61,628 bases of DNA from a virus: UHGV virus genome UHGV-1709118. One strand, given 5' to 3'. Below are positions 46,011 through 57,883 of this stretch, piece by piece. The position numbers and the translations under genes were made by a program. Position 1 is the first letter of the stretch, and each line of letters begins with the position of its first letter. Under the pieces are notes generated by a model, which saw nothing but the letters and a program-made list of their open reading frames with translations, did no database searches and was not told the DNA's origin.

Positions 46011-46252
46011 TGGGAGAAGAGGTAAGCTTAGCTTATCTCTTTTCTTTTGTTTAATATACTTGTTATAAACGAATGTCTTCGTTTTACAAGGCAACTTTCC
46101 GAATCAGTATACCACAAAGTCTGCTCAAAATCAATAGTCAAAATAGCTAAATTTAGAGAGAGAATTGGGATCCCGAATTGTGCAGTATACCTATTGACCT
46201 ATTGCGGCAAGTATGCTATTATATAATTACAAAAGGGAAGGAGATAAAACAA

Positions 46253-46438: not shown

Positions 46439-46507
46439 AAAAAAGTCTTGACAAGAAGCTCAGTCTGTGGTATTATATAATCAAGATAAAGAAAGGGGAA
46501 ACAAAAG

Positions 46508-46840: not shown

Positions 46841-46861
46841 AAAGTAAAGGAGCTGATTAGA

Positions 46862-47083
46862 ATGATAACAATCCTTCACAAAGCAGGTATTGCTTTCAGG
46901 GGAGAATATCTCCGGGAAGCTTGCAGGAAGAACTACGATTGGCTTACTTTAATGTATGCCGTTGAAGATTATAACCGCGCTGTGAAGCGTTACTACAAGT
47001 ATGTTTCTCGCCACCACGCAGTTATCCTTAACAAATATCCTTCTGGCGATGTTATCGCTCTTGAAGAAGGGGTAATTCTATAA
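46862..47083 (+). CDS. hypothetical early protein
   Basis: 73-aa ORF followed by terminator 47084-47104. Confidence 0.45.
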   Translation: MITILHKAGIAFRGEYLREACRKNYDWLTLMYAVEDYNRAVKRYYKYVSRHHAVILNKYPSGDVIALEEGVIL

Positions 47084-47199
47084 GGGCCGCAAGGCCCTTT
47101 TTCTTTTTGTTATATGCTTATATGGTGAAACTTCTAGGCTTCTAGCAGTAAAAAAAAAAAAAAATAAATAAATAAAAATTTTTTTTGTTCAATTTACCT

Positions 47200-47228
47200 A
47201 TTGACAGCAAAGCAAAAGTATGGTATAA
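47200..47228 (+). promoter_or_regulatory. early promoter followed directly by GC-rich hairpin (no ORF)
   Basis: TTGACA 47200-47205, 17-bp spacer, TGgTATAAT 47220-47228; hairpin 47238-47272. Confidence 0.5.
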
Positions 47229-47462
47229 TAATTGCGGCGGCGCGCACACGACCATGGCCTCCCAGTGTGCGCCGAAATTCTGTCAATACGCAAATTGCAC
47301 AAAAATTTAGAGGAAAGTTTGGTGATTTTGCCCAGAAGTATTCATCCCGAAATGGTGTTTGTTTATAAAAAGTATAGCGGCAAAATATCATCAAAATTGA
47401 TTATTGAATTTCTTAAAAATTTTTGTTATAATAATTACAGAAAACAAAAGGAGGTCAAAAGT

Positions 47463-47624
47463 ATGACTGAATACCGTGACTGGTTGGTAGTTTTCCCCAA
47501 TGGTGGACAGATACACTTTGATAACAAGGGTATCGCAATGCGGAACGCGACTCGCAAGAAAGGCTCTGTTTATGAGTGTCATCTGGAAGAGAATGGGAAT
47601 GAAACTCTCATTCATATCTTTTGA
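47463..47624 (+). CDS. hypothetical small protein
   Basis: 53-aa ORF from ATG 47463 with RBS aaggagg; track ORF 47232-47624 N-terminal extension spans promoter/hairpin and is rejected. Confidence 0.4.
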   Translation: MTEYRDWLVVFPNGGQIHFDNKGIAMRNATRKKGSVYECHLEENGNETLIHIF

Positions 47625-47639
47625 TAGGAGGTATTATGT

Positions 47640-47819
47640 ATGAAGCAAACTTATTCTATCTATCATGCTGGCGATGAAGAAATTATCGGGCCTTTTGATT
47701 CCTTTTCATTGGCAGAGGATTTCTTTCATAGGTTAGCTCAGTATGCTACTACAATGTATTACTTGGTAGATGATTCTACTGGTGAAATTCTTCTTGATAT
47801 TGAAGAAATTAAGGCTTGA
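47640..47819 (+). CDS. hypothetical small protein (59 aa, not in ORF track)
   Basis: ATG 47640 preceded by ataggagg; open to TGA 47817-47819. Confidence 0.35.
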   Translation: MKQTYSIYHAGDEEIIGPFDSFSLAEDFFHRLAQYATTMYYLVDDSTGEILLDIEEIKA

Positions 47820-47877
47820 CATTTGGGCCTTACCGTGGTATAATTACCATAGAAACAAAGGAAAGAGGTTGATACTT

Positions 47878-48333
47878 ATGACTGACAAGATGTTGGCTTT
47901 TGATATGGACGGCACTATTGCTGACCTGTATGGAGTTAATGGTTGGCTGTCTAAACTGCGGAAGGAAGATGCAAGCCCTTACCTGGAAGCTAAACCCATG
48001 TGGGATGTGGATAAGCTCAACGAGCTTATCAATAAACTAAAGCAGGCTGGTTGGGAGATTGCAATCATCACTTGGCTTTCTAAAGAAAGCAGTCCTGAGT
48101 ATGCAAAGGCTGTGCGAGAAGCTAAAAAGGCTTGGCTCTTGAAATGGGGTTTCCCCTATGATCATTTTCATGGTCTAAAGTATGGAGCTACTAAAGCGAA
48201 TGCTGTTCGTAGAAAAGCATCTAAGGCAATTCTTATTGATGATAATAAGAAGGTTCGTGATAGTTGGCATTTGGGAGAAACTGTCAATCCTGAAACTTGT
48301 GACATCATTGATTTTTTGGCTTCCCTGCTTTAA
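47878..48333 (+). CDS. HAD-superfamily phosphatase, 5-prime(3-prime)-deoxyribonucleotidase-like
   Basis: N-terminal FDMDGTIADL motif (DxDGT); start at ATG 47878 after promoter and RBS. Confidence 0.55.
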   Translation: MTDKMLAFDMDGTIADLYGVNGWLSKLRKEDASPYLEAKPMWDVDKLNELINKLKQAGWEIAIITWLSKESSPEYAKAVREAKKAWLLKWGFPYDHFHGLKYGATKANAVRRKASKAILIDDNKKVRDSWHLGETVNPETCDIIDFLASLL

Positions 48334-48353
48334 GCAGGGAGTCAAAAAAGTTC

Positions 48354-48382
48354 TTGACAAATGAGAAAAAATCTGGTATAAT
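48354..48382 (+). promoter_or_regulatory. early promoter
   Basis: TTGACA 48354-48359, 17-bp spacer, TGgTATAAT; leader acagaaattaagaaagaggt. Confidence 0.55.
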
Positions 48383-48415
48383 GAGTACAGAAATTAAGAA
48401 AGAGGTAGATGCAAC

Positions 48416-49123
48416 ATGAGCATTGATAGGCGCAGACATTATGTTCTGCTTCTGGACACTGAGACAGCAAACACCATCACTGACCAAAAAGGCCGATTAG
48501 ACATGACCTCAGTTCTTGTCTATGATTGCGGGTGGTGTGTTATGGACACAAGAGGAAATATCTACAAGGAACAATCCTTTGTTAATCGAGATATTTTCTT
48601 TGATGAAAGTGAGCTTATGAAATCCGCCTACTATGCGGAAAAGATTCCCCAGTATCTGGAAGATATTCGACAGGGTATCCGGCAAGTAGCTAACACTTAC
48701 CAGATTCGACAGGCTATGCTTGCAGACATGGCAGAATATGGTATTACAGAGGTAGTTGCCCACAATGCAAGATTCGACCTGAACGCATTGAATTTACTTC
48801 AACGCTGGACTACCAAAAGTAAATATCGCTATTGGTTCCCCTATGGTACCGATATTTGGGATACTCTCAAAATGGCAAGAGACGTTATTCTAAAGATGCC
48901 TACCTATAAAAGGTTCTGTGAACAACACGGTTTCTTAACCAAAACTGGTAAACTCTCAGCGACAGCAGAAAATTTGTATAGATTCATCTCCAAAGACCCT
49001 ACTTTTCAGGAAGAACATAAAGGTCTTGACGATGTGCGAATTGAGCGAGAGATTATGGTCTACTGCTATCGGCAAAAGAAGAAAATGCGGAAAAAACTTT
49101 TTGAAAATCAAAAAACCGCTTGA
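48416..49123 (+). CDS. DnaQ-like 3-prime-5-prime exonuclease (DEDDh)
   Basis: Exo motifs LLLDTETAN, VAHNARFDL, EHKGLDDV. Confidence 0.6.
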   Translation: MSIDRRRHYVLLLDTETANTITDQKGRLDMTSVLVYDCGWCVMDTRGNIYKEQSFVNRDIFFDESELMKSAYYAEKIPQYLEDIRQGIRQVANTYQIRQAMLADMAEYGITEVVAHNARFDLNALNLLQRWTTKSKYRYWFPYGTDIWDTLKMARDVILKMPTYKRFCEQHGFLTKTGKLSATAENLYRFISKDPTFQEEHKGLDDVRIEREIMVYCYRQKKKMRKKLFENQKTA

Positions 49124-49232
49124 CAAAACAAAAGGAAAATGATATAATATAAGAGAAGTGAGGGAGATAAAACCCTCCCCACTTCCTTAACAATTAGGGT
49201 AGCGACCTACCGCACAGAAAGGAATTGATATT

Positions 49233-49589
49233 ATGACTAACGAGAAGAAGATTACTAACAAGGGCGCCCTTCAGTATGTTCTGGACAACTGCGAGATTCC
49301 TGCCGACGTTCGTGCCAAGATTGAGATTCTGCTCCATCAGCAGGAGAACAAGAGCCGCGGTAGTGGTAAGCCTACTGCAACTCAGACTGAGAACGCACGT
49401 CTGATTGAGGTGATTGCCGACACTCTGCCCAAGGGCGAAGCTTTCACCATCTCCGACATTACCAAGACCATTCCTGAGCTGAACGGCTTTACCCCTCAGA
49501 AGGTTGGCCCCATGCTCAAGAAGCTGGTTGAAACTGGTCGAGCCACCCGTGACACCAACAAGGGCAAGGCATACTACACTATGGTGTAA
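49233..49589 (+). CDS. hypothetical protein, paralog of 55318-55734 (possible winged-helix)
   Basis: shared motifs with 55318 ORF (QTEN...LI...KTIPEL...TPQ...PM.K.LV..G.A..DT.KG.A); about 50 percent GC. Confidence 0.5.
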   Translation: MTNEKKITNKGALQYVLDNCEIPADVRAKIEILLHQQENKSRGSGKPTATQTENARLIEVIADTLPKGEAFTISDITKTIPELNGFTPQKVGPMLKKLVETGRATRDTNKGKAYYTMV

Positions 49590-49648
49590 TAATTAAATAA
49601 AGAGGGGCATTAAGCCCCTCTTTATTTTCTCAAAAAGGATGGTGTTTA

Positions 49649-50011
49649 ATGATAGATGAGACTAGGGTTAAACATCTTCAAAAGGTGTTAGACCTTGATA
49701 GAGAACAAGCTTTAGCAGTTATTGCCGATGATGAAGCAATAGATAAAGGTGCAGATCTTTTCCCACTTACTGATGAACAAAAGAAAGTAGAAAAGAAAAT
49801 GCGGTTATCCGGCAAAGAGAAAGGCAAGTATACTATGAATGCTCCCCGACAGCGCAAGGTTGACAATGACAAACATCGCTTGATTGAGATTATTGCGGAA
49901 TCTCTTGAACAACTTGAAATTGAAACTACCATCAATAACCCAGAACGAGAAATTGAGATAGTTTTTAATGAAAGACGTTTCAAAATTACATTAAGCGCTC
50001 CTAGAAAATAA
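49649..50011 (+). CDS. hypothetical protein, paralog of 55759-56148
   Basis: shared DKG...LT-EQ-KV-KK ... LI ... NPER-I ... F ... TL motifs. Confidence 0.5.
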   Translation: MIDETRVKHLQKVLDLDREQALAVIADDEAIDKGADLFPLTDEQKKVEKKMRLSGKEKGKYTMNAPRQRKVDNDKHRLIEIIAESLEQLEIETTINNPEREIEIVFNERRFKITLSAPRK

Positions 50012-50263
50012 TAATAAAACCGGCTTATTTTTTATAGGCCGGTTTTCTTTTTTGCCCAATACTTTTTAATGGCAAATGTTTGACGGCCCGCGCATGGTCA
50101 AGCGCTGCCGCATTTCAATTATACCAGGTAATCCGACTTTTGTCAATGGGCAAACCGCACAATTATTTGACTTTTTGTTTTCCCAAAATTGGTGATTCTG
50201 CCTATTGATTTTTTTATTAAAATTTTATATAATATAATTGTTCCAAGGGAAAGGAGAAACAAA

Positions 50264-50458
50264 ATGAAGATTAATTATAAATCTTTCAGCGTGGAAGTTT
50301 TTGGTGAAAATATTTGGGGCCAAACCTATCTGAACAGAGTAGGCTTTGATTCTGAGGAAGAAGCCGATAAGTTCATTGAATCTCTGGAAAAGGAAGAAGG
50401 AATTTATTCGGCAATTAAAATTGTAAATACAAGTTACAATTTCAGAAAAAACCCTTGA
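50264..50458 (+). CDS. hypothetical small protein
   Basis: ATG 50264 with RBS aaaggaga. Confidence 0.4.
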   Translation: MKINYKSFSVEVFGENIWGQTYLNRVGFDSEEEADKFIESLEKEEGIYSAIKIVNTSYNFRKNP

Positions 50459-50515
50459 CAAACAAACCAAGACGTGTTATAATAAACACAGAAATTAAGA
50501 AAGAGGTTGATAATT

Positions 50516-50737
50516 ATGAAAGCAAGCACTAACACAAAAATCAATATCGACATCACCGGCATCTGCATGTGGTTCCTCTCTTCCCTCTTCATTTGGCTGG
50601 GCTGGAAAGTTCTGGTGGCTCACTTCGGCTTGCCTTACTTTACCTATCTGGAAATCTTCGCCATGCGTATGGGGCTGGATGGTCTTGCAAGCATCTTCCG
50701 CAAGAAAAAAGAAGTGGAAGGCGAAAATAAGGCTTGA
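50516..50737 (+). CDS. small membrane protein
   Basis: 73-aa ORF with hydrophobic core; promoter TTGACA 50455-50460. Confidence 0.45.
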   Translation: MKASTNTKINIDITGICMWFLSSLFIWLGWKVLVAHFGLPYFTYLEIFAMRMGLDGLASIFRKKKEVEGENKA

Positions 50738-50762
50738 CAAACGTCAAGCCGAATGGTATAAT
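50734..50762 (+). promoter_or_regulatory. early promoter with palindromic -35 region
   Basis: TTGACA 50734-50739 inside palindrome ggcttgac-aaac-gtcaagcc (50731-50750); TGgTATAAT 50754-50762. Confidence 0.5.
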
Positions 50763-50786
50763 AATAACAGAAAGAGGTTGATGTAA

Positions 50787-50930
50787 ATGATTTCTACTAT
50801 TGCTCTGGCTTCCCTGGCTGCTATTATGATGGTGAAGGTGTTCGTTGCGGTTGAGCGTGAGGATTACCGCAAAATGTTCGCTAGCGGATTTGAGTTCGCT
50901 CTTCTGCTTCTGACTTTGGCTAATATTTAA
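50787..50930 (+). CDS. small hydrophobic peptide (47 aa, not in ORF track)
   Basis: ATG 50787 after agaggttgatg; open to TAA 50928-50930. Confidence 0.3.
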   Translation: MISTIALASLAAIMMVKVFVAVEREDYRKMFASGFEFALLLLTLANI

Positions 50931-50943
50931 GGAGGTAAATATA

Positions 50944-51192
50944 ATGAGAATTTATTCTATTAAACATCTGTTCGACAAAGAAGTTGCTGGTTTTTATCGA
51001 GAAATGAAAGAAAGCGTTGAAACAAAAGAAGAAGTAGAAAATGCCGTTTATCTGGTAATGGGTATGCAGGTTATGGCAAGTATTATCGCCGAAGGAAGTG
51101 ATGAAGAGGTTCTTGCCATTGAACATGAAACTTGGGATTATTGGATTCCAAAGTTTAAGAAACTTCTGGAAAATCTTCCTGAAAAGACTTGA
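50944..51192 (+). CDS. hypothetical early protein
   Basis: 82-aa ORF with RBS aaggaggt. Confidence 0.45.
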   Translation: MRIYSIKHLFDKEVAGFYREMKESVETKEEVENAVYLVMGMQVMASIIAEGSDEEVLAIEHETWDYWIPKFKKLLENLPEKT

Positions 51193-51217
51193 CATACGTC
51201 AAGTTCTATGATATAAT
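51189..51217 (+). promoter_or_regulatory. early promoter with palindromic -35 region
   Basis: TTGACA 51189-51194 inside palindrome acttgac-atac-gtcaagt (51187-51204); TGaTATAAT. Confidence 0.5.
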
Positions 51218-51248
51218 AAAGCCATAATAAAGAAAGGAAGTCGATATC

Positions 51249-51446
51249 ATGACTAAAGAAGAACTTTTAAACACTTTGCAGGAGGTCGGCTATGAATGGA
51301 GCAGAACGCTCAATGAGCACAAGTATGACTACTCGGATTTCGAGTGGAAGATGCTCGGCTGGGTAGCTGGTGAATTGATTGACCATTTCGATCAGGCAAT
51401 TGATTCAATTCGTGATGAACTTCAGGAGGAGGAAGAAGAAGAATGA
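51249..51446 (+). CDS. hypothetical acidic small protein
   Basis: 65-aa ORF. Confidence 0.45.
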   Translation: MTKEELLNTLQEVGYEWSRTLNEHKYDYSDFEWKMLGWVAGELIDHFDQAIDSIRDELQEEEEEE

Positions 51447-51691
51447 GAATGACAGAAAGAATCGAGAGATTTTTCAATCTTGATGAAGAGGAGAAGGAAA
51501 TTCTCAAAAAGGCTAGTTATATTCTCTGCGACATGGCAGAAAATGTTGATGGTTTAGGAAAAATTTCCTTAACTTATGAGAATTTTACTGAACCATTCGC
51601 AAAAACTCGGAGTTATGATGAAGGGAATCTTTATGATTTCTCATACCTATTAGCTGTTCTTTCTAAGGCAGAAACAATTGAAATTGAATAA
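51443..51691 (+). CDS. hypothetical early protein
   Basis: 82-aa ORF overlapping previous stop; terminator 51695-51719 follows. Confidence 0.45.
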   Translation: MRMTERIERFFNLDEEEKEILKKASYILCDMAENVDGLGKISLTYENFTEPFAKTRSYDEGNLYDFSYLLAVLSKAETIEIE

Positions 51692-51776
51692 AAATAAGGG
51701 CCTTTGGCCCTTATTTTTTACTTGACAGATTTTTCTTTCTATGTTATAATAACAATAGAAAAGGAGATGAAGCAAA

Positions 51777-51980
51777 ATGACAGATTTTGCAAGAACTGAA
51801 ATTCTTCTTAAAGCTTTACAGGAAGCAGGAAGATACATGCGGAAATATTTACCCGCAGAAATGCCATTAGGCGAAGATGCTGATATTACAAGATACTGTT
51901 TAATAAATGGTAATCAAGACCCGGAAGGCTCTAAGTTTGTAGAATACTTCATTCTTAAAGCATTTGATAATTATAAGTAA
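51777..51980 (+). CDS. hypothetical early protein
   Basis: 67-aa ORF after promoter TTGACA 51722-51727 and RBS aaggaga. Confidence 0.45.
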   Translation: MTDFARTEILLKALQEAGRYMRKYLPAEMPLGEDADITRYCLINGNQDPEGSKFVEYFILKAFDNYK

Positions 51981-52226
51981 GGGCTAAAAGCCCTTACTTT
52001 TTTATTTCTATATTTATTATAAACAAAAGTCAAGTGATAGTAAAGTTTGGCGGCGCGTTGATGGCTGACATGCGCCGCAATTTAATTATACCTCAAGCCA
52101 CGCCTTTTGTCAAGAGCAAAAGTGCATAAAAACAAGGCAGACAAAAATCCCGAATTTGTGCATTTCGCCAATAGACAAATAAGACCTGCCGTGTTATACT
52201 ATAATCACAGTAAGGGAGGAGATAAC

Positions 52227-52871
52227 ATGACAGAGATGGAACAGACTGTTCTTCAGTGGCTTGAAGATTTGGCGATTGACCCTTCAATGACCGATTGGGA
52301 CATTCAGAACCGGATGAAAGAGATTAAGCTTGGAAGCGAAGCTGCTATGGATTGCGGTTCTAGCAAGATTTGTCTCATCCCTCACAACGCCAACTTTGTT
52401 ATTAAGTGGACGTATAGCGACCCTGACGAGCTTACCAATGATGAAGCTCTGAAAGAGGTTGACATGTATAACAAAGCTGTCGAAGCAGGTTTAGGCATGT
52501 TCTTCCCCAAGACCGAGCTTTTCTGCACAATGAACGGAATCAATTTCATCAAGCAGGAGAAGATTGATTTTGCGGTTTGTGGCTGTTCCTATCAGACCTT
52601 TAAGCGGTATAAAACCAAGACCAAAACCGCAAGTGACCAGAAAGCGCAACTCATGAACAAGTGCTTCAAGAAAGCGGCTCCTAATGGGCGCTATGCAAGA
52701 AACTTAGACCCTCTTTGGGCTAAGATGGCTCTTGTTATCTATGGCAAAAGACTTTGCAAAACTCTTTGCGAGTTTGTCATTGAGAACAGAATCAATGACC
52801 TGCACGAATCCAACATTGGTTACAAAAATGACCGCCCAATCATCTTAGATTTTAGCGGTTTTGATAGATAA
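52227..52871 (+). CDS. hypothetical protein
   Basis: start at ATG 52227 after RBS aagggaggag; track ORF 52107 start lies in promoter/hairpin region. Confidence 0.45.
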   Translation: MTEMEQTVLQWLEDLAIDPSMTDWDIQNRMKEIKLGSEAAMDCGSSKICLIPHNANFVIKWTYSDPDELTNDEALKEVDMYNKAVEAGLGMFFPKTELFCTMNGINFIKQEKIDFAVCGCSYQTFKRYKTKTKTASDQKAQLMNKCFKKAAPNGRYARNLDPLWAKMALVIYGKRLCKTLCEFVIENRINDLHESNIGYKNDRPIILDFSGFDR

Positions 52872-52876
52872 AAGGC

Positions 52877-52905
52877 TTGACAAAGACCGGACTGTATGGT
52901 ATAAT
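52877..52905 (+). promoter_or_regulatory. early promoter
   Basis: TTGACA 52877-52882, 17-bp spacer, TGgTATAAT. Confidence 0.55.
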
Positions 52906-52937
52906 ACAGGTACAATAAAAGAAAGGAAGTAAAAAAC

Positions 52938-53336
52938 ATGAAAGCTACTGGTATCATTCGCCGCATCGATGACCTGGGTCGGGTGGTCATCCCCAAGGAA
53001 ATCCGCCACAATATGCACATCTGGGAAGGAGACCCTTTGGAGATTTATACTGCTTCGGATGAAATTGTTCTCCGCAAGTATGTTCCATCCGCAGAAAACA
53101 AGGCTTCTATTGCTCAGAAGTGGTTAGAGGACAATGCTCATATGTTATATGGCACTTCTGCAAAGTTCAGTATTGAGGGCAGAACTACTGTTTGCGAAGT
53201 TATCAGCAATAATCATCGCCTGACTGGAAAAGCAACAGCCACAACAAATGACACTTTCATTCCCGCGGTTGGTATGGTTATTGCTTATTGCCGAGCCGTT
53301 GGTTGGACTATTCCCAAAGAACTTATTGAGGATTAA
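52938..53336 (+). CDS. AbrB/SpoVT-family transcriptional regulator-like protein
   Basis: N-terminus GIIRRIDDLGRVVIPKEIRHNMHIWEGDPLEIY...IVLRKY matches AbrB swapped-hairpin domain signature. Confidence 0.6.
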   Translation: MKATGIIRRIDDLGRVVIPKEIRHNMHIWEGDPLEIYTASDEIVLRKYVPSAENKASIAQKWLEDNAHMLYGTSAKFSIEGRTTVCEVISNNHRLTGKATATTNDTFIPAVGMVIAYCRAVGWTIPKELIED

Positions 53337-53658
53337 AAAATTGCAAAAAGGCTTGACAAAGCTCTTCTTCTGTGATATAATACAAGTACAGTCAAGGGAG
53401 GTGATAAAGTGCTTTAGTGGTAAACAAATGAATAAAAAGGAGTAAAGCGAATGATAGATATTACTAGACACCCGCCGCCATGCTAACCCAATTATTACAG
53501 AATTTTGTTTGCACTGTTGTTTTACATGAACGAAATAAAACCATATAGTGCTGCGGAGATTTTCTTAGCTTTTTCTATTGCTCCAAAGTAATAAACAACA
53601 AGAAAGCTATCAGAGTAGGCGCCGCTCTGATAAAATAAAACAAAAGGAAGTTTTACAA

Positions 53659-53946
53659 ATGACAAAACAGGTATTATTTCTTGACCTTGAAGGAACTGTC
53701 CATGCCGGTTTGCTTTTGGATGATGGTAACATTATCTGCGGATGTTGTGGTTCTTTGATAGAACTTGGTGATTATTTACTACTCCATGTTTACAAAGAGT
53801 GGGTAGATATTGAGGAAGAAATCTGTGGGGATGATTTACTCCTTAAAGATTTCCAGAGAAAAGTAGACAGCTTATCTGTTAAAGAGATAGAAAAAATTCT
53901 TACTGAAACAGATGCAAGTAATTTGATAAAATCTCTTGACAAGTAA
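53659..53946 (+). CDS. hypothetical Cys-containing small protein
   Basis: ATG 53659 after RBS aaaggaag; preceded by about 250-nt ORF-free leader. Confidence 0.4.
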   Translation: MTKQVLFLDLEGTVHAGLLLDDGNIICGCCGSLIELGDYLLLHVYKEWVDIEEEICGDDLLLKDFQRKVDSLSVKEIEKILTETDASNLIKSLDK

Positions 53947-53990
53947 GTAAAAGCATGATATAATAACAATAGAAAACAGGAAAGGAATTG

Positions 53991-54524
53991 ATGATTATGT
54001 TCTCTATCAAAAATTGTAATAGCGTTCTGGAAGGTGCTGCTCAGGTCGTTAAACTGTTCGGGGATGAACCCTTCACTTCTGATAGATATGATGCGGCTCG
54101 TGGTAAGGGACGCTCTAAGGCGGAAACTCTCTTCAACCACAACATCATCAAAGTGGTGGGTAAAGCGCCGGTCTATGATACAAATTGGCCTAGATGCAGA
54201 GAAACTGCTCCTTATGTAACAAACCGTGCCGGCGAACTTCTTATGAAGTATAAGGAATACAGAGAGCTGCCGGTAGCGGCAAAGGAAGCTCTAATTGCAG
54301 CCAATGGTGGGGAAGAGTTGGGCATCCACTATGATAGAAGTGATATTACTATCTGCTATCGAGATACTTTTGCCTTTAATGCAAGCGGGTATCAAGAATA
54401 TCTCCAGGAAGTTTATACGAATCTTCTTTTTCAGATAGAAAGTAAGAAACAGGAAGTTCTTAAAATGGAGGATTGTTTTGGTAAGGTAGTTAAAGCATTT
54501 CAAGCAAATGCAATGAAGTTATAA
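53991..54524 (+). CDS. hypothetical protein
   Basis: ORF track 53988-54524; promoter TTGACA-TGaTATAAT overlaps previous gene end. Confidence 0.45.
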   Translation: MIMFSIKNCNSVLEGAAQVVKLFGDEPFTSDRYDAARGKGRSKAETLFNHNIIKVVGKAPVYDTNWPRCRETAPYVTNRAGELLMKYKEYRELPVAAKEALIAANGGEELGIHYDRSDITICYRDTFAFNASGYQEYLQEVYTNLLFQIESKKQEVLKMEDCFGKVVKAFQANAMKL

Positions 54525-54613
54525 AAATCTTTCACTTTGTGCAATTTATCTATTGACAAAACAAAGCAAAGATGCTATAATGAATACAGAAATTAAGAAA
54601 GGAACTGATAGCT

Positions 54614-54835
54614 ATGCTGTGTATGAAGAACGTGTTCAATGTCATGAAAGGTATCACTCGCGTAAGAGATAAGTTCAGAGGAAAAGGGTTCACTTTTTCT
54701 GAGTATAGCACCGATGACTATCAGAATTACTTACGTTATTTACAGACTGCGTTTGAATTAAAAACTATGGACAAAGAGCAGGAACTTGACAAATTGAAAG
54801 CTAATCTTGACAAAGTGGAAAAGGAAATGAGATAA
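54614..54835 (+). CDS. hypothetical small protein
   Basis: 73-aa ORF; bidirectional-type terminator 54841-54867 follows. Confidence 0.45.
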   Translation: MLCMKNVFNVMKGITRVRDKFRGKGFTFSEYSTDDYQNYLRYLQTAFELKTMDKEQELDKLKANLDKVEKEMR

Positions 54836-54881
54836 AAAAATGAGGGATTTTTCCCTCATTTTTTTTTGTACATTTTGCCTA

Positions 54882-54910
54882 TTGACAAAACCGCAGCTTT
54901 ATGGTACAAT
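54882..54910 (+). promoter_or_regulatory. promoter driving ORF-free GC-rich hairpin transcript
   Basis: TTGACA 54882-54887, 17-bp spacer, TGgTACAAT 54902-54910. Confidence 0.5.
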
Positions 54911-55020
54911 GGCGCGGCGCCCACGGCTGTGGAGCGCCGAAATTTCAATTATACCACGCGGCACAAAATTTGTCAAGAGTTAAACTGCACAAAATCTATT
55001 TGGGAAAAATCCCACTTTTT
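54911..55020 (+). ncRNA. candidate small RNA (5-prime GC hairpin, weak terminator)
   Basis: promoter immediately upstream; hairpin 54911-54939; gggaaaaatccca + T-run at 55001-55020; no RBS-ATG ORF. Confidence 0.3.
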
Positions 55021-55317
55021 GTGCAATTTGCCTATTGCAATTTGGGTGAAATCTGATATAATAAATAATGTCAGGAGGGAGTAGCCCAAGAAATCCTAGG
55101 GCGGCCGACTTAGAGAAAGTATAGGAAGTAAACGGAATACATCAAGTGGTAAGTCTTATATCATGTGGTAATTGTTATTGCCCAACATGCTCTGGAAGCC
55201 GTAAATCTTGTGAAAAGTTTGCGAAACCTCTTGACAAACCCCAAGAAACATGCTATAATAAGCATGTAATCAAGAGAAGGACAAACTCTTAAAAACCAGA
55301 AAGCGAGATAGGTGTTT

Positions 55318-55734
55318 ATGGAAAATACTAACAAGAGAATTACTAAGCGTGAGCGTTTCCAGTCTTTGATTGAGCTGGTGGAACTGTGCGAAGGCCGTGA
55401 GGATGAAGGCTTTGACTTTGAGGGTCTGACCGATTTCCTTTCCAATGAGATTCGCCTGCTGGACGCTAAGAAGGGTTCCAATTCCCGCAAGCAGACTGCC
55501 CGCCAGACTGAGAATGAGCATTTTAAGGCTCTGATTGCCGAGCGGTTGACCGAAGAGGGCATGACTATTGCAATGCTCCGCAAGACCATTCCTGAACTGG
55601 AGGATTTGACTCCCCAGCGTATTGCCCCTATGTGCAAGGCTCTTGTCTCTGAGGGTATTGCTTACAAGGATACCTGCAAGGGTATCGCCCACTTTTACAA
55701 GGCGCAGGCCGTAGTAGAAGAGGAAGAGGGCTAA
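55318..55734 (+). CDS. hypothetical protein, paralog of 49233-49589
   Basis: see paralog; ATG 55318. Confidence 0.5.
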   Translation: MENTNKRITKRERFQSLIELVELCEGREDEGFDFEGLTDFLSNEIRLLDAKKGSNSRKQTARQTENEHFKALIAERLTEEGMTIAMLRKTIPELEDLTPQRIAPMCKALVSEGIAYKDTCKGIAHFYKAQAVVEEEEG

Positions 55735-55758
55735 GGCCCTCTTCCCTAGAAGGGAGGT

Positions 55759-56148
55759 ATGTTTTTGGATAAAGCAAAAGAAGCAATCGCAAGAATCCAA
55801 GCCGGCATCAAATGCAGCTATGAAAAAGCAGTAGAAATCTATAAGACAGATTGCGAGGTTGACAAAGGCATCCCGCATGAATGGGATTTGACCGAGGAAC
55901 AGCAAAAGGTAGCAAAGAAATATACTATTACCGGGCAACATACTAAGAAGCATGACCGCAAGGCTCCGGTCAAAAGAGAAAGAAAAGAGAACCCCACTAA
56001 AGCAAATTTGATTGCGGAACTTGCAGGTTTTCTTGAATCTTTGGGGATTTGTGACGTAAAAATTGCAAATCCTGAGCGACAGATTGCTTTTTCTGTGGAT
56101 AATAACGCCTTTGAGCTGACTTTAGTTCAAAAAAGGGCCAAAAAGTAA
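55759..56148 (+). CDS. hypothetical protein, paralog of 49649-50011
   Basis: see paralog; RBS gggagg. Confidence 0.5.
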   Translation: MFLDKAKEAIARIQAGIKCSYEKAVEIYKTDCEVDKGIPHEWDLTEEQQKVAKKYTITGQHTKKHDRKAPVKRERKENPTKANLIAELAGFLESLGICDVKIANPERQIAFSVDNNAFELTLVQKRAKK

Positions 56149-56205
56149 AGTTTTTGGCCCTTTTCACTTAAAAAAGAGCTAATTTTGACGAAAAAGGTGA
56201 TGTAA

Positions 56206-56550
56206 ATGCAACAAAAGAAAGAGTATTTGTATGTAGGTCACTATTTTGACATAGAAGGCAACTACATTCTCAAAATAGGCACTACTAACGATTTAGCCCG
56301 GAGACAGCAAGAGCATACCAGAAATTATAAGCGTTCACCTAAGTTTACTATGCCGAAATCCGCTAAGTTTGTCTATGATTGGCATCTGCCTTTATCTAAG
56401 TATTCAACTTTGCGGTATGAGGATAAGAATCGTGCAGCATGGCAGGAATCTTCTATCGGCGAATTTGTCCGCAATGACAGATTTTGCTGTAAGCAAAAGC
56501 CCAAGAAAGTAAAGGTTACTATCCGCAAAACTTATGAGATCGAGTTATAA
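56206..56550 (+). CDS. GIY-YIG-like nuclease domain protein
   Basis: YLYVGHY...ILKIGTTNDLARRQQEH resembles GIY-YIG motif (GIY ... YIG-T-N-L-R ... E/H). Confidence 0.4.
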   Translation: MQQKKEYLYVGHYFDIEGNYILKIGTTNDLARRQQEHTRNYKRSPKFTMPKSAKFVYDWHLPLSKYSTLRYEDKNRAAWQESSIGEFVRNDRFCCKQKPKKVKVTIRKTYEIEL

Positions 56551-56563
56551 GGAGGAAGAAAAC

Positions 56564-56782
56564 ATGGTTGTTATTAAAAAGCAGTGCGAAGTTCACTTAT
56601 CCCAGGAGGAAATTGACTGTCTTGAAAAAGCAGCTGACATTCTCAATGAAATTTGGTCAGTAATGCCTGCTGAAAGTTATATTGGTGATAAGAAAGTAAT
56701 GTATGCTGAGGATGTCGGAGAAATGTCAGATAATCTGCAAGACTTGGCAACTATCGGAGAAAATATTGTGGTTGAAGATTAA
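56564..56782 (+). CDS. hypothetical small acidic protein
   Basis: ATG 56564 after RBS aaggagga. Confidence 0.4.
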   Translation: MVVIKKQCEVHLSQEEIDCLEKAADILNEIWSVMPAESYIGDKKVMYAEDVGEMSDNLQDLATIGENIVVED

Positions 56783-57101
56783 CGGTTACCAAAGGATAGT
56801 GGTTAATAGCCACTATCCTTTTTTATCCCTATACTTGTTATAAGCAAAAGTAAAGTAATAACAAAACTCAGCGGGCCGCACTTGGTGGATGCGGCCCGAA
56901 TTCGCGTCAATACACATTTTCCACAATTTTTCTGCTTTTGATTTGTACAATTTTACTTATTGACATTTTCCTAAAATTATGTTATTATATAATCACAAAA
57001 GGAAAGGGGATTTAAAAATTTCAAAAAAATAAAAAAGGTCTTGACAAACCAGGGCAAAGATGCTATAATGAATACAGAAATTAAGGAAAGAGGTTGATAG
57101 T

Positions 57102-57377
57102 ATGAATGAACGCAGAGACTTCATTGCAAAGAACTGGGGTGAGGATGTTCTTGAAGCTATTGATAGCTGTGAGCCGTTAAACATTACCTTTGGCCAGTTT
57201 TTGGACAAGTGCGTTGCTTGCGGTGGCAACTGGGGCGGTATGCTTCTAACTGGCCTGAAGAAGTTGCGGCCTGAGATTTGGGAAGCCATTCCCCAAAATA
57301 TGGGTCTTTATGCTTGGCAGTGCATCTGCAATACTTTAATCCTTGCTGGTGTGGTTATGGAAGAAGAAGAGGGCTAA
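57102..57377 (+). CDS. hypothetical early protein
   Basis: 91-aa ORF after promoter TTGACA-TGcTATAAT and conserved leader. Confidence 0.45.
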   Translation: MNERRDFIAKNWGEDVLEAIDSCEPLNITFGQFLDKCVACGGNWGGMLLTGLKKLRPEIWEAIPQNMGLYAWQCICNTLILAGVVMEEEEG

Positions 57378-57410
57378 AAAGCCCTTTTCCATAAAGAAAG
57401 GAAGGTAGAA

Positions 57411-57692
57411 ATGGAAATTAGAAAACCTACGAATTGGTTGGATGCTAAAGGGATGCTTGACAAAACACTACAAGCAAGATCTACAGTAATCACTGAAGCC
57501 CTTGGGCAAATTATGTTTAATCTTCTAAGTGCCGCAGAAGATGGAAAATTTGCTACTACTATTAATCTTCTAGAAGATACAAAAATTATTACTCAAATAC
57601 TTGAGGAAGCAGACTATAAGGTTCAATTTCTTAAACCAAATGGTGAATACTCACAATATATTGTTTGCTGGGAAAAGGAGGACGAAGAATAA
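57411..57692 (+). CDS. hypothetical early protein
   Basis: 93-aa ORF. Confidence 0.45.
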   Translation: MEIRKPTNWLDAKGMLDKTLQARSTVITEALGQIMFNLLSAAEDGKFATTINLLEDTKIITQILEEADYKVQFLKPNGEYSQYIVCWEKEDEE

Positions 57693-57883
57693 TGATTATC
57701 AAAATTACTGACCGCTACAACGGCGATTTCGCGAAGTTTGATTCTTTGCAGAAAGCCTATGACTACTTCATGGACTATGACAAAGAATGTGAGGGAGATT
57801 GGTGGCCATTGATTACTATTGATGGGGCTTGGGTTCCTCTGGAAGAGTTTTTCGTGATGTATAAAGAAAAGGGGTGCAAATGA
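57692..57883 (+). CDS. hypothetical small protein, tandem paralog A
   Basis: MIIKITDRYNGDFAKFDSLQKAYDYF... similar to next ORF. Confidence 0.4.
   Translation: MIIKITDRYNGDFAKFDSLQKAYDYFMDYDKECEGDWWPLITIDGAWVPLEEFFVMYKEKGCK

Follow-up and report, generated by a model that had tools for sequence, protein, structure and literature searches.

What is a GC-rich island doing in a gene-free stretch behind a terminator? The question arises at positions 50012-50263 of the window, i.e. the whole stretch of 61,628 nucleotides of the virus genome UHGV-1709118 that we analysed. The preliminary description had seen there an ORF-free interval in which a terminator, placed at 50017-50046, is followed by an island sharing sequence blocks with 52049-52130 and 54911-54990, and had proposed a repeated structured element that might be an sRNA, a protein-binding site or the remnant of an inverted promoter. 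The sequence is as quoted, with a terminator-like hairpin at 50016-50046, and the interval is free of genes: public gene calls of the same contig are empty at 50012-50263, where only mechanical ORFs occur. Downstream of the terminator come tttgac and GGCCCGCGCATGGTCAAGCGCTGCCGC (21 of 27 positions are G or C, in a region of about 37% GC), then catttcaattatacc...ttttgtcaatgggcaaaccgcacaa. What had escaped recognition is that the GC island folds into a hairpin, and that this hairpin sits where the transcript of a backward promoter is predicted to begin. The features of this cassette, hereafter E50, are the following.

50016-50046, plus strand: T1, intrinsic terminator of the upstream gene (49649-50011), from the terminator scan
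50084-50110, no strand assigned: GC-rich hairpin, the 'GC island', from sequence, fold and a match to covariance model R1
50118-50146, minus strand: P_rev, antisense sigma-A/sigma-70 promoter TTGACA-17-TGgTATAAT, from the promoter scan (12/12) and an exact-pattern search
50156-50162, minus strand: TTGTGCG, lying 9 nt upstream of the -35 of P_rev; the consensus of this upstream motif in the family is TTGTGCA
50005-50113, minus strand: predicted antisense transcript from P_rev, about 108 nt, from the minus-strand fold
50181-50233, plus strand: P_fwd2, forward promoter of the next gene, from the promoter scan (10/12), with the same layout in relatives

The hairpin has 9 bp, a small internal loop and an 8-nt loop; it received no call in the terminator scan, and its tail reads ATTTCAAT (the family consensus tail is AAATTTCC). 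P_rev has its -10 at 50118-50123 and its -35 at 50141-50146, which puts the predicted start at about 50111-50115, at the base of the hairpin. No gene is served by this promoter: its predicted transcript starts at the base of the stem-loop and heads into T1, and would contain three hairpins in this order: the GC one at its 5' end, one in the middle, and that of T1 in reverse. The minus-strand fold of 50005-50112 has -35.6 kcal/mol and z = -3.15, a score in which the terminator hairpin is counted. On that strand the T1 hairpin is followed by the U-rich tail AUUAUUAUUUU, and T1 could also halt the antisense transcript. On the other side, P_fwd2 comprises the motif TTCCCAAAA, a degenerate TTGGTGA (50189-50195), a -35 TTGATT (50205-50210) and a -10 TATAAT (50228-50233), and is followed by the RBS AAGGAGA (50251-50257) and an ATG at 50264. 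It is well supported that 50016-50263, in a large gut phage using the host sigma-A RNA polymerase, makes up a complete regulatory cassette between two genes, and equally well supported that its order is T1, GC stem-loop, perfect backward promoter with TTGTGCA, and a weaker back-to-back forward promoter with its RBS.

Is this arrangement particular to one gene boundary? The shared blocks that the preliminary description had noticed form, in an independent repeat search, a single 51-nt family (D5: 50112-50162, 52079-52129 and 54942-54992, 65-73% identity), each copy of which also pairs with forward promoters as an inverted repeat (I3, I7-I9). Their similarity goes far beyond chance. The exact pattern TTGACA-N17-TATAAT occurs 18 times in the window, against 0.03 expected from shuffles; 15 of these sites lie on the plus strand before genes, and the three on the minus strand are those of E50 and of the modules E52 and E54; the genes of that region are all plus-strand genes. 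Likewise, TTGTGCA-N9-TTGACA with at most one mismatch is found at 9 sites against 0.11 expected, on backward and forward promoters alike, and the 'cgcacaa' block is this TTGTGCA motif reversed, exactly 9 nt upstream of the -35. The other modules of the window are listed below; E47 and E56 are additional to the copies described before.

52050-52129, minus strand: E52 module, with hairpin 52050-52078, P_rev 52085-52113 (12/12) and TTATGCA 52123-52129; the best R1 match (E = 5.6e-4)
54882-54992, no strand assigned: E54 module, face-to-face form, from the promoter scan, the repeats (inverted repeat I2) and R1, with forward promoter 54882-54910 (11/12), hairpin 54915-54939, P_rev 54948-54976 (12/12) and TTGTGCA 54986-54992
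47201-47302, no strand assigned: E47 module, short form, from sequence and exact pattern, with forward promoter 47201-47229 (12/12) firing into hairpin 47238-47274 and, 6 nt past the hairpin, the reversed half-site TGTCAA-N9-TGCACAA (47281-47302) without -10
56872-56926, no strand assigned: E56 module, short form, from sequence and as the fourth match of R1, with hairpin 56872-56898 and, after 6 nt, the reversed half-site CGTCAA-N9-CCACAA (56905-56926) without -10; no promoter fires into it

The five modules thus lie at 47.2-56.9 kb, and there are none in 42 kb of late genes. The P_rev of E50, E52 and E54 are all 12/12 with 17-nt spacing, two of the three have a TG-extended -10, and in all three the hairpin begins 6-8 nt past the -10. 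On its downstream side the module has the promoter of the next gene, often with a weakened -35 and preceded by TCCCGAA(A)T and another TTGTGCA, the two TTGTGCA copies being 16-26 nt apart. The distance from T1 to the hairpin ranges from 0 to about 45 nt, hence the two are not rigidly coupled.

Several minor observations concern the same region. What looks like a degraded sixth module, lacking the GC hairpin, is found at 46040-46140, where a backward promoter-like site has a -10 AGTATA (46106-46111) and a -35 AATCAA (46129-46134) separated by a 17-nt spacer, and where the upstream flank (TTATAAaCGAATG) resembles those of E52 and E56. The third conserved motif, TCCCGAA(A)T, occurs at 46171-46178, 47345-47353 and 52148-52155, with a variant at 50181-50188, directly upstream of the forward TTGTGCA; in distant relatives it is also present inside promoter spacers (L008 680-720), and it may be an operator. 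Just 5' of E47, at 47147-47190, a long run of A is followed by a run of T (aaaaaaaaaaaaaaataaataaataaaaattttttttg).

The window belongs to a phage genome of about 137.6 kb (ENA contig k119_16178). Its late genes, including those for the portal and a 2857-aa tape measure protein, occupy 1-41 kb on the minus strand, and 42-61 kb contain many small plus-strand genes, almost each of them preceded by a consensus promoter. The best named match of the portal is in phAss-1 (38% identity), followed by 140-kb Enterococcus siphophages (about 30%). phAss-1 is a 136-kb human-gut genome whose authors guessed its host to be among the Clostridia/Eubacteriales; their paper mentions no promoters, terminators or hairpins. 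The exact module pattern is also present in 53 stretches of metagenome-assembled genomes, binned mostly as Acutalibacteraceae, Oscillospiraceae, Ruminococcus and unclassified Clostridia. Phages with the module are siphovirus-like, related to phAss-1 and likely hosted by Clostridia. A scan of the window for tRNA and tmRNA found none, and Pfam and PHROGs searches on the genes flanking the element were uninformative except for one 132-aa protein (52938-53336) with an AbrB/MazE (SpoVT-type) DNA-binding domain (Pfam PF04014, E = 1e-9), which is a candidate regulator of the module motifs. In a GC-richer stretch at 55270-55953, a minus-strand ORF of 227 aa lies opposite two plus-strand genes that have promoters; the ORF has probably arisen by chance, and public gene calls take the plus-strand genes.

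How far does the family extend? A search with the flanking proteins returned one close relative (L001/L003, 91-98% amino acid identity) and several distant ones (about 45%), all IMG/VR contigs of 80-194 kb, and a pattern scan of viral contigs added 49 stretches. The same modules are abundant in all relatives retrieved by the flanking proteins. In phAss-1 they lie at 129-136 kb, with face-to-face forms at 130.71-130.80 kb and 132.92-133.01 kb, and the first 50 kb are nearly module-free. Searching GenBank phages by blastn with the region and the consensus module gave only tiny matches, one of them a 24-nt match to the early region of phAss-1. A GC hairpin lies no more than 12 nt from the -10 in 149 of 893 distinct near-consensus promoters and in only 0.23% of shuffled windows; among promoters with TTGTGCA the fraction is 51%. 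Hairpin-linked promoters are mostly backward: 117 of 161 are antisense to the local genes, these 117 being spread over about 55 loci, with the hairpin typically at +7/8 from the -10, and the other 44 are co-directional, with the hairpin about 4 nt past it. Seen from the hairpins, 144 have a clear gene direction; 70 of them have a full backward promoter, 21 are short forms, and a forward promoter fires into 30, in addition or as the only one. A full P_rev is found on about 70% of the module hairpins, and 19 modules are face-to-face, with a forward promoter also aimed at the hairpin from the opposite side.

The hairpins themselves are held together by pairing and not by sequence. Stem sequences vary among copies, and yet the outer eight pairs are Watson-Crick in 97.3% of cases over 99 distinct copies, compared with 46% when the 3' arms are permuted (maximum 52.7% in 1000 trials). 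In a near-gapless alignment of 24 copies, 97.4% of the cells are paired, both sides have changed in seven of the eight pairs, and the covariation score is 0.654 against 0.185 in shuffles, none of 500 reaching it; sliding the partner by 1-3 columns lowers pairing to 21-52%. The covariance model R1 was made from these 24 copies, all of other phages, and contains no sequence of the window. Its top four matches in the window are E52, E54, E50 and E56 (rough E of 5.6e-4, 0.018, 0.066 and 0.19). Hence the idea of a repeated structured element family was right: to the D5 repeats can be added about 100 covarying copies in related phages, and both the alignment of the copies and the covariance-model search across related genomes bear it out.

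Which strand is read? Few G.U pairs occur in the stems, which are palindromes of near-perfect Watson-Crick pairing and often consist of GC runs that alternate purine and pyrimidine between AT-rich flanks, and the loops are heterogeneous (usually 7-11 nt, range 3-17 nt). A first census of G.U against A.C by strand was ambiguous (14 vs 15). A cleaner one gave 29 G.U-type pairs for the gene-direction RNA against 15 for the opposite RNA in module hairpins (15 vs 10 in those with only a backward promoter), and 44 vs 16 in favour of the coding strand in ordinary terminators of the same loci. This points to a role for the hairpin in the gene-direction RNA, with the opposite strand probably constrained as well, because non-Watson-Crick pairs are rare, as expected if both transcripts must fold.

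Some other identities for the hairpin were considered and set aside. A tRNA-like minihelix with a 3' CCA does not fit, CCA being found within 5 nt past the stem in just 33 of 99 copies. The hairpin promoters of N4 are used by a virion polymerase and have loops of 3 nt; the loops of the module hairpins are of 3-17 nt, and their flanks carry canonical -35 and -10 boxes. Loops resembling a Shine-Dalgarno or anti-Shine-Dalgarno sequence occur in some relatives only, are absent from the window copies and are not general. Mobile repeats of MITE or REP type are at odds with stem sequences that differ among copies and with the lack of terminal repeats. The hairpin is no terminator for the direction of P_rev, since the tail on that side is C- and then A-rich.

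The backward promoter is also under constraint. In nine orthologous module pairs, 1-15% divergent, none of 108 positions in the -35 and -10 hexamers has changed, compared with 4 of 154 in stems, 7 of 63 in TTGTGCA, and 7-11% (about 9%) in spacers, linkers, loops, the initial transcribed region and tails. By our own arithmetic, 108 positions changing at about 9% would all stay the same with a probability of about 5e-5. Since the hexamers stay unchanged while the flanks diverge, P_rev is maintained by selection and is no remnant. The inverted promoter of the preliminary description is therefore there, three times on the minus strand with 12/12, and it is the word remnant that has to go. The protein-binding site must likewise be divided: it is unlikely for the hairpin, the sequence of which varies, and possible for the flanking TTGTGCA motif.

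Why would a phage keep a perfect promoter that serves no gene? We favour, tentatively and somewhat short of calling it probable, the idea that the cassette insulates adjacent early transcription units by the combination of a hairpin and head-on transcription. Polymerases reading through T1 would meet the stem-loop plus polymerases loaded at a high rate from P_rev; the stem-loop of the nascent RNA would position these head-on encounters, and read-through would be prevented. As the early genes all have one direction, the phage would be providing a dedicated gene-less convergent promoter. In the short forms, lacking the -10, the same hairpin has a U-richer tail and might act as an ordinary terminator: at least 5 T within 8 nt past the hairpin are found in 10% of the P_rev forms and 54% of the short forms (p = 1.6e-4), a contrast that is partly a matter of promoter anatomy, given that the reversed TTGACAAAA puts T's beside the hairpin in short forms.

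We favour insulation because head-on collision of RNA polymerases is reported to be necessary against read-through between convergent genes of E. coli, with the nascent stem-loop placing the collision, a case of bidirectional termination by 'programmed collision' (Wang, Watters, Ju, Liu, bioRxiv 10.1101/2022.10.23.513370). The cassette resembles that arrangement in its sequence architecture, with convergent transcription across a boundary stem-loop that lies between the upstream gene and P_rev, and its palindromic hairpin would form in both transcripts. In the convergent pairs described in that preprint the partner is a real gene, whereas here, as far as sequence goes, it would be a dedicated gene-less promoter placed 6-8 nt from the hairpin.

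Insulation would account for the perfect promoter without gene, the fixed distance to a palindromic hairpin, the location at unit ends and the U-richer tails of short forms, the last point being partly built into promoter anatomy. It explains less well the face-to-face forms and the additional TTGTGCA and TCCCGAAAT motifs. The face-to-face modules (19, e.g. E54) look wasteful for a pure insulator, and the conserved TTGTGCA and TCCCGAAAT suggest a regulator of which insulation makes no use. T1 being always present, a second device needs a reason, e.g. leaky termination, and a constitutive convergent promoter should also reduce the expression of the upstream gene. A more radical version is that almost every early gene boundary has a gene-less 'anti-promoter' that would exist solely to send host RNA polymerases head-on against a palindromic hairpin. 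We regard this as doubtful, if worth stating: were it true, the 'anti-promoter' would, in a self-contained way, trap polymerases or terminate by collision and represent a new class of transcription insulator, and its face-to-face form might be a sink sequestering host polymerase during takeover.

The rival that survives best, and which we still consider rather unlikely, is that the module is a cis-antisense RNA gene. P_rev would make a stable RNA of about 110 nt that opens with the GC hairpin and ends at T1, used backwards as terminator. By pairing with read-through transcripts or with the upstream mRNA at its 3' end, this RNA would lead to double-strand-specific cleavage or decay. The hairpin, starting 7-8 nt past the -10, would be complete within the P_rev transcript, and a U-tailed hairpin follows on the minus strand about 105-110 nt downstream of P_rev in E50 and E54, where the upstream terminator is bidirectional enough for an RNA of about 108-110 nt; in E52 a promoter and terminator of its own delimit a short transcript only weakly. 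The minus-strand folds have z-scores of -3.2 to -6.4, values to which the terminator hairpins contribute and which are inflated for that reason. In the family, the first 150 nt downstream of P_rev are enriched in terminator-like sites (26% vs 9% at random positions), but this leaves about three quarters of the family without one, and 53 of 101 backward promoters have none within 400 nt. Past the hairpin, the P_rev transcript has no conserved sequence; loops and tails both vary, hairpin shape is all that is conserved in this RNA, and short forms retain the hairpin without any promoter. Rfam gave no match at the gathering threshold and, at E<=1, only weak terminator-driven matches, none of them on the hairpin.

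Such an RNA would work like the OOP RNA of phage lambda, which acts against cII mRNA. The likeness lies in a strong constitutive convergent promoter predicted to give a structured RNA of about 80-110 nt overlapping an mRNA 3' end. OOP is a single conserved gene with a defined terminator, whereas the module has many copies per genome with unrelated stem sequences, mostly with no terminator nearby. With so few downstream terminators and no conserved RNA, a discrete sRNA is possible for E50 and is not the common denominator of the family; the sRNA put forward in the preliminary description may thus hold for this copy and does not generalise.

If insulation leaves the motifs without a use, they are the core of a second rival, a regulatory switch, in which [TGTCAA-N9-TGCACAA]...[TTGTGCA-N9-TTGACA] and TCCCGAAAT would form an operator array controlling the weak forward promoter. 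The regulator might be encoded by phage or host, and P_rev would be a divergent partner acting as competitor, source of supercoiling or decoy, in an arrangement resembling the divergent early and late promoters of phi29 under p4 control. The excess of TTGTGCA and its presence on both P_rev and the forward module promoters argue for a switch, as do the often degraded -35 of the latter (TAGACA, TTGATT, TTGCAA) beside a perfect P_rev, the reversed half-site that stays 6 nt from the hairpin even without a -10, and the AbrB/MazE-type protein encoded nearby. Yet the covarying hairpin and its fixed place at the start of P_rev would go unexplained, the spacing of the TTGTGCA pair varies, and TTGTGCA has changed in close relatives as often as its surroundings. 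We therefore find a switch unlikely.

Less probable still is that the backward promoter has no function at all, and that the cassettes are repeats spread and inverted by recombination, useful only as homology for shuffling. Recombination does occur at the module. By blastn, the close relative aligns to 47093-50154 and 52037-57860 of the window, with an overlap of 86 bp, and lacks what lies in between.

50155-52036, plus strand: six-gene cassette (genes 50264-51980) between E50 and E52, absent from the close relative IMGVR_UViG_3300045988_145614

In the alignment, L001 has a single module made of E50 up to TTTTGTCAATGGGC and of E52 onward, with the crossover in the TTTTGTCAA block. As a chimeric E50/E52 module replaces 50155-52036, the copies act as recombination joints, and the six genes are a cassette gained or lost by recombination inside a shared promoter block. 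On the evidence of these alignments, repeated conserved blocks are shown to serve, as a side effect, as homologous recombination substrates by which gene cassettes are added or removed. Other indels, in this and other close pairs, fall at plain promoter/RBS repeats, and shuffling at repeated regulatory sequence is therefore general and not specific to the hairpin. These joints are what speaks for a functionless repeat. But homology alone requires neither 12/12 hexamers, a TG extension and an exact 17-18-nt spacing, nor a hairpin at a fixed 7-8 nt with compensatory changes in its stem, and it does not predict invariant hexamers among diverging flanks. Since stems differ among copies, pairing, the most conserved feature of all, adds little sequence homology.

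The last rival, an element read as DNA (a cruciform, a Z-DNA-prone GC palindrome or a transcription-primed replication origin), would suit the near-perfect, G.U-poor palindromes and their alternating GC runs in AT-rich flanks, and is very improbable given loops usually of 7-11 and up to 17 nt, unfavourable for cruciforms, dozens of copies that are all at early-region gene boundaries with none in 42 kb of late genes, and G.U-type pairs that lean to the gene-direction RNA as in true terminators. Antitermination of the Q type, from P_rev into the late genes of the same direction, was considered as well and had no supporting evidence.

Insulation remains the reading we prefer. Among described systems, a known type of cassette comes closest to the module. 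Promoter-early stem-loop cassettes (PeSL) of T4-type phages (Arbiol et al. 2010, PMC2839356; Comeau et al. 2014, PMC4122927) also combine a consensus host-type early promoter and a GC-rich stem-loop in a short intergenic space, repeated among small early genes of unknown function, and there too the copies recombine, so that flanked genes are gained or lost and a chimeric cassette stays behind, as in the E50/E52 chimera of L001. Terminator and promoter activities were measured for PeSL (PMC2839356; PMC4122927); for the present module they are predicted from sequence. A PeSL promoter runs in the direction of the downstream gene, whose Shine-Dalgarno closes it, and the position of the stem-loop is variable; here the hairpin-linked promoter is mostly antisense and gene-less, stands at a fixed distance from the hairpin, and leaves the gene to a separate forward promoter, with a TTGTGCA motif and a separate ordinary terminator in addition. 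PeSL are found in T4-type myoviruses, and the phage studied here has its long tape measure protein and a portal nearest to phAss-1 and Enterococcus siphophages. A backward promoter and a different phage lineage make the module a variant of PeSL and no member of it.

As far as we found, composite promoter/stem-loop cassettes had so far been described only in T4-type phages of Gram-negative hosts. The module is a structurally distinct version of them in an uncultured clade of large gut and rumen phages that includes the published phAss-1, its defining oddity being a gene-less perfect promoter aimed back at a covarying hairpin in more than 100 instances. The module is real and conserved, a regulatory cassette of this large clade that had not been described, and the mechanism given above is a plausible one. 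Should programmed collision be true, it would offer a natural, compact and portable insulator and a test bed for collision-termination outside E. coli. For annotators, such intergenic stretches are to be seen as regulatory cassettes and recombination joints and not as junk, and antisense transcription might be expected at the early gene boundaries of these phages.

Further differences from the close relative IMGVR_UViG_3300045988_145614 and further non-coding stretches were noticed along the way. At 46448-46496 this relative has about 480 extra bp inserted where a forward promoter is duplicated, and at 46859-47093 it carries unrelated sequence instead of the 73-aa ORF 46862-47083. At 55063-55292, about 170 nt without a clear gene come after the forward promoter of the E54 module, and these begin with GTCAGGAGGGAGTAGCCCAAGA; leaders similar to the GTCAGGAGGGAGTAGCCCAAGA stretch follow module promoters in L008 (at about 8578) and phAss-1 (at about 128.87 kb), and a Cys-rich 48-aa ORF (GTG at 55146) overlaps the following promoter. 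In phAss-1 (OQ749652.1), a plus-strand 'hypothetical protein' is annotated at 130698-131642 with its start within a face-to-face module; it runs antisense to the early genes around it and may be a spurious gene call. Non-coding starts driven by promoters of the TTGTGCA class are common to several sets of contigs (L011/L014/L044, L029/L032/L055, L024/L053 and L040/L045), e.g. ttttcGGGCAGCAGACCAAGTGTTCGA... and ttttcGGCCTGCAGCG..., and these may be further small RNAs.
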